NCBI GenBank assembly: GCA_964640865.1
Contig: CAZXIU010000002.1
Location: 1-41,958, forward strand
DNA: 41,958 bases
Source: an uncultured archaeon
Lineage (GTDB): Archaea; Aenigmatarchaeota; Aenigmatarchaeia; QMZP01; JAFGSV01
Direction: 5' to 3'
Shown: in pieces, positions 4,324 to 13,677 of the stretch
How the letters are laid out: every line of letters starts with the position of its first letter
Numbering within the stretch: position 1 is the first letter of the stretch
The notes under the pieces: model-generated
The model's database searches: none
Told to the model about the DNA's origin: nothing
Seen by the model: the letters and a program-made list of their open reading frames with translations, nothing else
Made by a program: the position numbers and the translations under genes

Positions 4324-5399
4324 CAACTTGTCACCTCAAAATTCTTCACTTTTTCGAGAAGCTTCTTTGCTTTTGCATTCTTTTCAAAATGCTTTCGGAC
4401 AGGTTCCACAAGCTGGTTTATGTGGTCTGAGACAGCATTCTTGAGGTCCATCGGATGGAGCTTGCCGCTTTTGTAAATGCCCACAAGATCGCTGTACGAT
4501 TCTATGCTCAGGTTTCCGCCAAACTTTTCAGGTCGTTTCACTTCCAGTGTTTTGAATTTCTCGAATATGATGTGTTTGCAGTATTCCATTACTGGATTTT
4601 CTTCCACTATTTTTTCAGGGCAGTAGGCTTTTGATATTTTTCTGTTTATTTCTTTTTCGCTATCATCCATGAATATTGCTGTGTCCGGCTTGCTTTTTGA
4701 CATCTTCATCTCTATTGCTCTTTCTGTTGCATCCTTGGATATTGTTGCATGTTTTCCGAGCCCCATGAGCATGTGATGGCTGACAACAACAGGCTTCCAG
4801 AAACCGAGTTTCGGACCTATTTCCCTTGCCAGCATGTTGACCTTCCGCTGGTCCATCCCCAGTTGCGTGATGTCGCATTTCAGCTCGAATATGTCAGCAG
4901 CCTGCATGCAAGGATAGAGTATCTGCGACGCCGAAAGGGTTTCACTTTCCTTTCGGCCCATTATCTGGGCGCATCTCAGCACCCTTTTTACTGTACTGTT
5001 CCTCGCTACTTCCATTACAGTTTTCCAGTACGTTTCATTCCCGAGAAGGTCGCTTGAGCGCACGAATTCTATTTTTTCTATGTCCATGCCTGCGGATTTC
5101 CAGACCTCGAGCATGTAATCGCCTGCGATGTGAATCTTATCGAGGTCCCCCCCAAGCTTGTTGTTCGCCCATCCGTGCCAGTCAGCAACGAGCATCTTGA
5201 ACTTCACGCCTGCCTTTATCATCTTGTTTACATTAATTGCCCTGAGGATGCCCTGCGCTATGTGTATCCGTCCGGAGGGCTCGAAACCGTCATAAGCAAC
5301 AGGCCTGGTTTTTGACTGAAGAAGTTCCCTGAGGTCATCCTCGGTTATGATTTCCTCACCGACCGACCTTATCATATCCATCCTGCTTTCGATGTCCAT
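4323..5399 (-). CDS. tyrS: Tyrosyl-tRNA synthetase (archaeal type)
   Basis: Contains FEPSGRIHIAQG, YPCMQAADI, KMSKS and the C-terminal KRPEKFGGNL...LHPMDLKNAV block typical of archaeal TyrRS. Confidence 0.92.
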   Translation of the reverse strand: MDIESRMDMIRSVGEEIITEDDLRELLQSKTRPVAYDGFEPSGRIHIAQGILRAINVNKMIKAGVKFKMLVADWHGWANNKLGGDLDKIHIAGDYMLEVWKSAGMDIEKIEFVRSSDLLGNETYWKTVMEVARNSTVKRVLRCAQIMGRKESETLSASQILYPCMQAADIFELKCDITQLGMDQRKVNMLAREIGPKLGFWKPVVVSHHMLMGLGKHATISKDATERAIEMKMSKSKPDTAIFMDDSEKEINRKISKAYCPEKIVEENPVMEYCKHIIFEKFKTLEVKRPEKFGGNLSIESYSDLVGIYKSGKLHPMDLKNAVSDHINQLVEPVRKHFEKNAKAKKLLEKVKNFEVTS

Positions 5400-11141: not shown

Positions 11142-11870
11142 TCACACTGTCATTACTTCCATTATATTCAGGTCATCGAGGCCGAAGACAAGTATGCTGC
11201 CCTTGCCGGGGTTCACTGATATTGTCTCTCCTATTATATCCTTCCAGCTTCCTGACATTCGCGGGGATTCATGTATATGTCCATGGAGCGTCAGATACGG
11301 CTGTTTCTTCTCTATGAATTCCCTCACAGCTCTGCTTCCCACATGGTCACCGCTGAAAATGATATCAAGATTTGTTCCAATTGGAGGAGCATGCATGGAG
11401 TATATTGTTTTCTTTGGATTGCTCTTCCCTGACAGACTTTCAAGATCGTCCTCTATTGAGCTTTCGGATTTTTCCCAGTCCTTGATGAGTATCGGAGCCT
11501 CGTTGACGAATGAATAGCCGGCTATGTATTTTCCTCCCAGCGGATAAACCTTCTGGTTTATAATTCTGAATGCGCCGTTTTTCTCCCCTTCTTCAAGTGT
11601 CTTCATGTTCATTTTCAGGTCATCGTTTCCCATCATTAGGAAGACATCCTTAGGGGTCTTCTTCTGGAAATCATTAAGGCGCGGAATCAGGTACGACTTT
11701 ATGAAATCCTTCTGGTAGCCCGCTATGTCTCCTATCACCGAAAGGAACGGACCTATATCCCCGCCTATGACAAGCGCTTTCACGTTCTTTCCTGCAGCGA
11801 CCTCAAGAACCTTCTCATACTGGTATATCTCCCCGTGAAGGTCAGTCGCAAAAACAATAACCTTTTCCAT
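11142..11870 (-). CDS. Calcineurin-like metallophosphoesterase
   Basis: Motifs ATDLHG, GGDIG, MGNDD and HGHIH. Confidence 0.8.
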   Translation of the reverse strand: MEKVIVFATDLHGEIYQYEKVLEVAAGKNVKALVIGGDIGPFLSVIGDIAGYQKDFIKSYLIPRLNDFQKKTPKDVFLMMGNDDLKMNMKTLEEGEKNGAFRIINQKVYPLGGKYIAGYSFVNEAPILIKDWEKSESSIEDDLESLSGKSNPKKTIYSMHAPPIGTNLDIIFSGDHVGSRAVREFIEKKQPYLTLHGHIHESPRMSGSWKDIIGETISVNPGKGSILVFGLDDLNIMEVMTV

Positions 11871-11872
11871 TC

Positions 11873-12049
11873 CTACTCCTTCTCGCCAAACCAGTCAGGA
11901 AATAATATGACTGCTGCGGAGAGAGCCACTGAAAAGACTATGGGTGGAATAAGCTTCTCATTACCGCCTATTCCCCATGACATCATCCAGACAAGCGAAG
12001 CTATTATTACAGCCACGATTATCAGCCCTGATACATTCATGTTATCCAT
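11873..12049 (-). CDS. Small two-helix membrane protein (58 aa, below the ORF-track cutoff)
   Basis: Hand translation gives MDNMNVSGLIIVAVIIASLVWMMSWGIGGNEKLIPPIVFSVALSAAVILFPDWFGEKE. The stop is 2 nt before the phosphoesterase ATG. The ORF fills an otherwise empty gap next to tRNA-Ala. Confidence 0.45.
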   Translation of the reverse strand: MDNMNVSGLIIVAVIIASLVWMMSWGIGGNEKLIPPIVFSVALSAAVILFPDWFGEKE

Positions 12050-12062
12050 TAAACCACCTTTA

Positions 12063-12174
12063 TGGACTGGGTGGGAATTTCAGACTGGAAGCAGATTGCA
12101 TCTGCTTCATGCGCCTTTTGAACCCACGGCCTCCCGATTGCCAACCGAGCGATCTACCACTGATCTACCAGCCC
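12063..12174 (-). tRNA. tRNA-Ala (GGC) with a 40-nt intron in the T-loop at 59/60 (12077-12116)
   Basis: Acceptor GGGCUGG/CCAGUCC with G3:U70 and A73. The anticodon loop UU-GGC-AA is uninterrupted. The T stem is GUGGG...CCCAC. BHB: UUCA:UGAA central helix, bulges AAA and AUU, and inner helix GGC:GUC plus a 9-bp hairpin. Confidence 0.85.
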
Positions 12175-12217
12175 GCTATGACCTTTCTTTATTTAACTAA
12201 TTTAATAATTTAACCTT

Positions 12218-13454: not shown

Positions 13455-13677
13455 CGCTGAGAGAGGGAATTTCAGAATCCTTTTGCGATTTTCCCGTAAA
13501 CGCTTCTCGTTCGTGCGCCAGCGTACTTTCCGCTTTTGCTTCTCGTTCGTGCGCCAGCGTACTTTCCGCGAACGCTTTTGTGCGTTTACTGCGCAAAAGG
13601 GTTCATTTGAACCCTCGCGAGGCGAACCTCACACGGTTAGCAACCGTGCGCCTTTAACCTAACTCGGCCATCTCAGC
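13455..13677 (-). tRNA. tRNA-Ser (GCU) with a 137-nt intron in the T-loop at 59/60 (13469-13605)
   Basis: Acceptor GCUGAGA/UCUCAGC with G73, intact anticodon arm CACGG-UUGCUAA-CCGUG, and a long variable arm (GAGG-UUCG-CCUC). The T stem GAGGG...CCCUC is split by the insertion. BHB: UUCA:UGAA central helix, bulges AAU and AUU, inner helix GAACCC:GGAUUC. Confidence 0.8.
13502..13573. repeat. Tandem direct repeat, 2 x 36 nt (32 nt identical), inside the tRNA-Ser intron
   Basis: GCTTCTCGTTCGTGCGCCAGCGTACTTTCCGC occurs at 13502-13533 and 13538-13569. Confidence 0.9.

Follow-up and report, generated by a model that had tools for sequence, protein, structure and literature searches.

The window analysed here is a contig of 41,958 nt from a tiny, uncultured salt-marsh archaeon of the phylum Aenigmatarchaeota. 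On its minus strand it carries a tRNA-Ala(GGC) gene with an intron in the T loop, between standard positions 59 and 60, set in a motif of the bulge-helix-bulge (BHB) type. T-loop positions are among the known intron sites of archaeal tRNAs (PMC6379350) and several described systems inform on this locus. The closest is that of ARMAN-2, for which T-loop 59/60 BHB introns, one of them a strict hBHBh′ case, were published in 2011 (PMC3239211). According to the same source the splicing endonuclease of this organism, an EndA of the ɛ2 type, cleaved a 59/60 T-loop intron in vitro. The three-unit ARMAN-2 enzyme corresponds to entry 4fz2_A and its residue numbering is followed here (PMC3488258, PMC6379350). 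Kaneta et al. (2018) knew ɛ2 EndA only from ARMAN-1, ARMAN-2 and the Mancarchaeum lineage. A second point of reference is provided by the transposed intron families of Thermoproteales (Fujishima et al. 2010, via PMC4090602, PMC4033280 and a 2026 bioRxiv preprint) and a third by the canonical introns at position 37/38 of the anticodon arm (Marck and Grosjean 2003, via PMC6379350). No paper analysing tRNA introns of Aenigmatarchaeota was found in a search that covered main texts, and the supplementary tables of PMC5829648 and PMC3239211 may list more 59/60 introns or ɛ-type EndAs.

ARMAN-2 and the present locus share a DPANN host, an intron at 59/60, a strict hBHBh′ motif and a genome encoding a three-unit, ɛ-type EndA. 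They differ in that the host is a member of the Aenigmatarchaeota, the interrupted gene is tRNA-Ala(GGC) and the intron sequence is unrelated. In addition the alanine intron is one member of a family that is present in multiple copies and marked by a conserved 9-bp hairpin, and its cleavage is a prediction. As in the Thermoproteales families, near-alike introns occur in tRNAs of different identity, they are present or absent among close relatives and the requirement for a BHB limits where copies persist. In contrast to the Thermoproteales, the Aenigmatarchaeota are DPANN archaea with ɛ-type rather than (αβ)2 EndA, and their copies lie mostly at 59/60 with a minority in the D loop. With canonical 37/38 introns the locus shares a 3-4-3 BHB and, in this genome, the same cut register; in both cases the exon provides the 5′ strand of the central helix and the 5-bp stem of the arm serves as outer helix. 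The difference is that the alanine intron occupies the T arm, not the anticodon arm.

We consider it very likely that the locus is a functional tRNA-Ala(GGC) gene, the only one in the assembly, with a 40-nt, protein-spliced intron at 59/60 that is a copy of an intron family and was gained recently. An earlier note on this DNA had presented the intron as non-canonical. The site and the reading stand, with two corrections. Such an intron is ordinary for the lineage, occurring in at least six tRNA genes of the same genome and, by covariance model, in 46 of 91 genomes of the order, and its kind had already been published for ARMAN-2 (PMC3239211). Given that both 59/60 introns and intron families are on record, a single gene of this type is a known kind of thing. 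What the locus adds is, apparently, a recently gained copy of a mobile mini-intron family, and the parts of specialist interest are the behaviour of the family, an intron-bearing and an intron-less allele to compare, and how widely ɛ-type EndA occurs (97 of 301 sampled genomes of the phylum).

The genome to which the window belongs (G000) comprises 896 kb in 79 contigs and is 85.9% complete; the window is its contig C2. Gene, exons and intron are placed as follows, on the evidence given in brackets, where G009 is the closest relative and X6 a metagenomic contig, both described below.

12063 to 12174, minus strand: tRNA-Ala(GGC) gene, 112 nt, with G1 at 12174 and A73 at 12063 (sequence, fold, ARAGORN).
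12117 to 12174, minus strand: 5′ exon, 58 nt, standard positions 1-59, including the anticodon (cut register, G009 alignment).
12077 to 12116, minus strand: BHB intron, 40 nt, at T-loop 59/60 (exact 40-nt gap in G009, absence from X6, register).
12063 to 12076, minus strand: 3′ exon, 14 nt, comprising U60, the 3′ strands of the T and acceptor stems and A73 (sequence, G009 alignment, register).

The acceptor stem has 7 bp with a G3:U70 pair and discriminator A73, the D stem 4 bp with a 7-nt loop, and the anticodon stem 5 bp with a 7-nt loop carrying GGC at 12142-12140. The alanine identity features proposed earlier, G3:U70, A73 and the GGC anticodon, are therefore all present in the minus-strand sequence. 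The variable region is 5 nt long and CCA is not encoded. The T stem GUGGG/CCCAC (12127-12123 / 12075-12071) also has 5 bp, and it encloses 47 nt instead of the usual 7. In foreign contigs with alanine tRNA genes the match ends at 12117.

The insertion and its borders build the following elements.

12123 to 12127, minus strand: 5′ strand GUGGG of the T stem, outer helix h of the BHB, paired with CCCAC at 12071-12075.
12119 to 12122, minus strand: exon residues U54, U55, C56 and A57, 5′ strand of the central helix H, 4 bp with intron UGAA at 12079-12082.
12116 to 12118, minus strand: 5′ bulge AAA, predicted cut between 12117 and 12116.
12076 to 12078, minus strand: 3′ bulge AUU, predicted cut between 12077 and 12076.
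12113 to 12115, minus strand: 5′ strand GGC of the inner helix h′, paired with GUC at 12083-12085.
12088 to 12108, minus strand: conserved hairpin of 9 bp and a 3-nt loop, by which the intron family is recognised (fold, covariation, distribution).

There are thus two 3-nt bulges on opposite strands with a 4-bp helix between them and helices on both sides, the attributes of a strict hBHBh′ motif. The hairpin strands GAAGCAGAU/AUCUGCUUC form a perfect 9-bp helix (12108-12088). The earlier note had described the T stem as outer helix, UUCA/UGAA as central helix, AAA and AUU as bulges and GGC:GUC plus the hairpin as inner part; every structural element that it named was located where it had been placed. 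A tRNA-Ala(GGC) gene with a T-loop 59/60 intron in a strict BHB is confirmed as an observation and its interpretation as such is supported. Folding of the 112-nt gene is more favourable than expected by chance, with only two of 200 dinucleotide shuffles folding equally well (z = −3.03). For the T arm plus intron the BHB conformation is at −21.3 kcal/mol, compared to −23.6 kcal/mol for the minimum free energy (MFE) fold, a gap of 2.3 kcal/mol.

The cut register was assigned by scanning the tRNA genes of the genome for a layout in which the outer helix has 4 bp or more, the central helix 4 bp and each bulge 3 nt, with an inner helix beyond, the cut being placed after the second nucleotide of each bulge. 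Applied to the anticodon-arm introns of the genome (Val UAC and five others) this rule gives 37/38 and a proper 7-nt anticodon loop. Applied to the alanine gene it gives a 58-nt 5′ exon, a 40-nt intron (12116-12077), a 14-nt 3′ exon and a 7-nt T loop. ARAGORN calls the product spliced in silico a 72-nt tRNA-Ala(ggc), and the earlier proposal that the standard register restores the loop UUCAAAU fits this product. The spliced T arm is that of the paralogue tRNA-Ala(CGC) on contig C25.

In the proposed mechanism the T stem of the precursor would act as outer helix and UUCA (54-57) would pair with intron UGAA in the 4-bp central helix, leaving two 3-nt bulges closed by the 3-bp inner helix and the 9-bp hairpin. 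The arrangement appears to be a geometric copy of that in the anticodon arm at 37/38, because stem (5 bp) and loop (7 nt) are of equal size in the two arms and the register is shared. A splicing endonuclease would cut after the second nucleotide of each bulge and RtcB would join A59 to U60 to create the 7-nt loop UUCAAAU in a 72-nt tRNA. The candidate enzyme is the ɛ-type EndA encoded on contig C12, for which homology is shown and activity is predicted. With the intron in the T arm, the precursor would lack the elbow between T loop and D loop until spliced.

Relatives of the intron were sought with the T arm plus intron as BLAST query. Of the 301 genomes sampled from the phylum, 14 have matches, and these belong without exception to two families of the order that includes the window (f1, 2 of 10 genomes and f2, 11 of 23, not counting G000). 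A strict pattern scan of these loci, with ARAGORN applied to the spliced forms, places the copies at 59/60 with lengths of 37-40 nt. The hosts with a single intron and a clean call are Ala(GGC), Ala(CGC), Asp(GUC), Ser(GCU), Thr(GGU), Gly(CCC) and His(GUG); Ser(GGA), Ser(CGA), Met(CAU) and Tyr(GUA) have a second, canonical intron, and for such genes ARAGORN identities are unreliable. Counting eight clean single-intron calls and five with a canonical second intron, and leaving out four calls that look unreliable, the host tRNAs carry at least 11 different anticodons. The mean column identity of 21 copies of 37-40 nt is 81% in a MAFFT alignment that misplaces end gaps for the 38-nt copies and was not used for pair counts.

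A covariance model of the T arm and intron was built from ten copies of 56 nt and the matches were then realigned. It finds matches in the 46 of 91 genomes of the order mentioned above, up to 15 per genome (f2, 20 of 23; f6, 17 of 47; f1, 4 of 13), the weak ones among which may be other T-loop introns of the same architecture. In the 46 matches, from 42 loci, used to test covariation, 97.7% of cells are standard pairs and 17 of the 22 pairs have changed on both sides. The T stem is 100% paired with changes on both sides in four of five pairs. The central helix is 97.3% paired, with columns 9:95 switching between A-U and G-C in five copies. The inner helix is 92.4% paired and all four of its modelled pairs have changed on both sides, whilst the hairpin is 99% paired with compensatory changes in eight of nine pairs. 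None of 500 shuffles reaches any of five measures, and sliding the partner strand by one to three columns reduces pairing to 35-56%.

The copies nearest to the intron in the window share 93% and 91% identity with it; G006, which belongs to the same genus, has them in its Ser(GGA) and Tyr(GUA) genes. Copies are more alike within genomes, with a mean identity of 0.73 over 23 pairs as opposed to 0.56 over 1012 pairs between genomes, a difference that none of 2000 label shuffles attains. The nearest neighbour is in the same genome for just eight of 26 copies, in a biased sample of loci from related, non-independent genomes. Given both observations, spread of the intron family within genomes is suggested but goes no further than that.

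The same 9-bp hairpin with its 3-nt loop was also seen inside D-loop BHB introns of other tRNAs (L033, L035, L043, L044) and at intergenic sites near gene ends in relatives (L042, L045); the 21 nt of the hairpin at L042 are identical to the copy in the window. Scanning the genomes of 185,579 species for the exact hairpin pattern returned 13 stretches, eight recorded as Candidatus Aenigmatarchaeota, four as uncultured archaeon and one as a metagenome-assembled genome (MAG) of Thermotogota. This last match (L094, 1356-1380) is the only one outside archaeal MAGs; it falls on both strands because the pattern is a palindrome, and it is probably due to chance.

The history of the insertion was followed in a comparison set of 40 related genomes, with G001, G004, G006, G008 and G009 belonging to the genus of the window. 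In G001, G004 and G008 a syntenic, intron-less Ala(GGC) gene lies beside the same downstream gene for a VTT-domain protein. G009, with 92.7-95.1% identity across the flanking 3 kb, is the closest relative. Its Ala(GGC) exons are identical to those in the window save nucleotide 59 (G for A), and the alignment shows an exact 40-nt gap at the T loop. Across the five syntenic Ala(GGC) loci the T-loop intron is therefore present in G000 and absent in the other four (G009, G001, G004, G008). A G009-like allele, again lacking the T-loop intron, is carried by X6, a 20.7-kb contig of a 2021 sediment metagenome. A search for sequencing runs covering the stretch returned no RNA run, and the four runs compared consist of DNA contigs. 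Contigs from the DNA of two salt-marsh runs have the intron-bearing allele with no differences, though we caution that they are no independent proof of the assembly because the sample of origin may be among them. The most likely history is one gain in the G000 lineage after its split from a G009-like sister; the alternative demands at least two losses.

The G009 gene (L010, on its contig C2) has an intron of its own, 46 nt long and in the D loop, which is absent from G000. Two near-identical lineages thus each have a private intron in the same gene.

Does the genome encode the means to remove such an intron? It has two matches to PF01974 (EndA).

G000 contig C12, 8556 to 9749 (L022, 1189 to 2385), minus strand, outside the window: ɛ-type three-unit EndA, 398 aa.
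G000 contig C15, 5719 to 6288 (L021, 1231 to 1800), plus strand: α-type EndA, 189 aa, closest to the α4 enzyme of M. jannaschii.

Residues 3-398 of the first align to residues 6-387 of 4fz2_A with E = 5e-92, and the positions of the catalytic Tyr236, His251 and Lys282 and of Lys161 in the specificity loop are conserved. By homology the ɛ-type enzyme is likely to be the one that splices the alanine intron. The α-type protein keeps the catalytic tyrosine and histidine and has an alanine at the position of the catalytic lysine of the M. jannaschii, M. kandleri and ARMAN-2 enzymes; its gene lies directly downstream of two tRNA genes, one of them with a T-loop intron. An RtcB ligase is also encoded (516 bits). 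Narrow-specificity types of EndA should take the alanine intron as well, its motif being strict (EndA specificities are summarised in PMC6379350).

The ɛ-type enzyme is widespread. It is found in nearly all genomes of the order to which the window belongs (f1, 10 of 10; f2, 22 of 23; f6, 32 of 35; f4, 3 of 3), as well as four further families; the remaining families among the 301 sampled genomes gave no match (for example none of 58 in f13). Aenigmatarchaeota join the lineages with tRNA intron families that behave as if spreading, known earlier from Thermoproteales, and, for the combination of 59/60 introns with ɛ-type EndA, from ARMAN-2.

A further question is whether the cell depends on this gene. 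GCU and GCC together account for 43% of the 11,119 alanine codons counted across 340 open reading frames (ORFs) of at least 300 codons, and Ala(GGC) is the only tRNA found in the genome able to read them. A second intact tRNA-Ala(GGC) gene, which the earlier note had singled out as the finding that would tell against its view, was not found in the 85.9%-complete assembly, where the other alanine gene is Ala(CGC) on C25 only. To judge from its place in relatives (L007, L017, L020), a gene for Ala(UGC) probably sits in the 16S-23S spacer past the end of a contig.

Several points weigh against a functional, recently gained intron and should be addressed. Transcription, the cleavage sites and ligation are all inferred from sequence. 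At 85.9% completeness an intact second Ala(GGC) gene could sit in the missing part, and there is no second copy of the intron family in the assembly, so that no donor is visible. Were the ɛ-type EndA inactive, no intact nuclease would be known in the genome, the α-type protein being without the lysine. The inner helix has merely 3 bp, one of them G-U, and is followed by an asymmetric internal loop. The MFE fold leaves UUCA and UGAA unpaired and so contains no central helix, which we judge to be a limit of the nearest-neighbour model for a motif stabilised by protein, and not counter-evidence. The covariation alignment had been fitted to the model, a procedure that favours structure; even so, an effect of this size, together with switches from A-U to G-C in the central helix, is otherwise hard to explain.

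These concerns lead to the alternative that the gene is a pseudogene, or a tRNA gene that has lost its function to a recent, unspliced insertion of 40 nt, with GCC and GCU read by a tRNA missing from the assembly. The insertion is indeed absent from four of the five syntenic loci of the genus, the assembly is incomplete at 85.9%, the Rfam tRNA score is below threshold and the locus is known from DNA alone. Set against this, the exons are identical to those of G009 save nucleotide 59 amid flanks that are 5-7% divergent, and the insert brings an entire BHB of the strict type, correctly in register. Forty-six copies are kept in many types of tRNA with compensatory changes, which would be unexpected of inactivating insertions, and no other Ala(GGC) gene was found in the assembly. 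We regard inactivation as very unlikely.

A real intron might also be spliced in another register, for example at 58/59 or 60/61. Owing to the run of A at the 5′ site and AUU at the 3′ site the cut could move without a change in loop length, other registers likewise leaving a 7-nt T loop, and comparison of DNA alone cannot fix the cut to one nucleotide. The symmetric rule that matches 37/38 in the canonical introns of the genome gives 59/60, however. The loop so created is the same as in the paralogue Ala(CGC) and in the orthologue from G004, and U60 is kept as in G009. A shifted register is accordingly very improbable, and 59/60 is retained here.

Annotation tools deal poorly with the locus. 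The Rfam tRNA model scores it at 22.2 bits, under the gathering score of 29 bits, as opposed to 65.2 bits for the G004 orthologue, which lacks the intron. ARAGORN detects gene and anticodon but puts the 3′ end wrongly at 12081, mistaking an intronic heptamer for the acceptor stem's 3′ strand. The earlier suggestion that automated pipelines may miss this tRNA holds for Rfam with its sub-threshold score and has to be amended for ARAGORN, which detects the gene and truncates it. A tRNA reading GCC and GCU is in this way missed by a generic covariance-model scan and truncated by ARAGORN, so that genomes of this lineage will seem poor in tRNAs unless BHB-aware tools are used. The heptamer itself (12081-12087, minus strand), a near repeat of the acceptor 3′ strand that misleads ARAGORN, arises from one extra A relative to other members of the family and looks coincidental. 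At a different locus, L018, where the gene has a second intron, ARAGORN calls Phe(aaa) where inspection by eye indicates Ala(UGC).

Taken at face value, the ARAGORN model is a 94-nt, intron-less tRNA-Ala at 12081-12174 with CCAGUCU as acceptor 3′ strand and a long extra arm. Although the heptamer does pair with the acceptor 5′ strand, with two G-U pairs, the model leaves out a T arm and a 3′ acceptor strand with A73, both perfect, 18 nt farther downstream. Alanine tRNAs belong to class I and have no long extra arm; the orthologues in G009, G004, G001 and G008 end at the equivalent of 12063, and in other copies of the intron the heptamer does not match the acceptor stem of the host. The model merits next to no credence.

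On the opposite strand there is one feature to consider.

11835 to 12200, plus strand: ORF of 121 aa, judged spurious (open, no Pfam match).

That the locus is this protein gene and not a tRNA can be dismissed, for although the frame is open, as the earlier note had recorded in calling it spurious, no Pfam family matched it, it overlaps a tRNA with strongly constrained exons, and G009 differs by indels of 40 and 46 nt within the frame while the tRNA exons are identical.

With the reading as a spliced tRNA-Ala(GGC) retained, the way in which the intron arrived can be considered. One possibility, which we advance tentatively and would not rate as high as even, is that it represents a very recent insertion by an active mobile mini-intron family, almost confined to Aenigmatarchaeota, that homes to 59/60 and less often to D loops. 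Homing into T and D loops would make sense because the target loop supplies half of the BHB. If this were true, G000 with the intron and G009 without it, at some 95% flank identity, would be a natural before-and-after snapshot, the near-invariant 9-bp hairpin would be a candidate recognition element for the machinery that moves the intron, and the mechanism of intron gain in archaeal tRNAs could become testable. A reverse transcriptase (PF00078) was not found in G000, though in an assembly 85.9% complete this does not imply absence. In any case near-identical strains of which one has the intron and the other lacks it are material for studying intron gain.

The alanine intron is not alone in its genome. 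Of 15 pattern hits, six are tRNA genes with T-loop introns and nine fall within coding sequence that has no tRNA context. Apart from Ala(GGC), T-loop introns interrupt at least five tRNA genes, namely Ser GCU, Gly GCC, one with a GUU loop, one with CAC and one on C22. Their introns measure from about 40 to 143 nt and are unlike the alanine intron in sequence. The positions, all with the 59/60 BHB layout, are given below.

Contig C48, 5109 to 5194: tRNA gene with T-loop intron.
Contig C62, near 1091: tRNA gene with T-loop intron.
Contig C15, near 5466: tRNA gene with T-loop intron.
Contig C22, near 14354: tRNA gene with T-loop intron.
Window, 13455 to 13677: tRNA gene with T-loop intron.

The gene on C48 is Gly(GCC), which ARAGORN truncates at 5135. 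The second alanine gene is interrupted elsewhere.

Contig C25, 1844 to 1932, minus strand: tRNA-Ala(CGC) with a 17-nt D-loop intron in a BHB, the D stem being the outer helix.

In acceptor stem and T arm this gene is identical to the spliced Ala(GGC).

Two other structural readings were tried and set aside. A second BHB-like candidate within the alanine gene, a 49-nt 'intron' starting at gene position 38, appeared under a permissive G-U search only and was rejected because half of the tRNA would be deleted. A K-turn or box C/D reading of the hairpin region was rejected on inspection by eye, because beside the inner helix U-C stands in place of G-A on the strand facing the 3-nt bulge, so that no tandem sheared pairs are possible. 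Upstream of the gene an A/T-rich, TATA-like box was noted by sequence at 12189-12196 (minus strand), 15-22 nt from the 5′ end of the tRNA. A similar motif is kept upstream in relatives of the genus, and the box may also serve the divergent gene for the VTT-domain protein.

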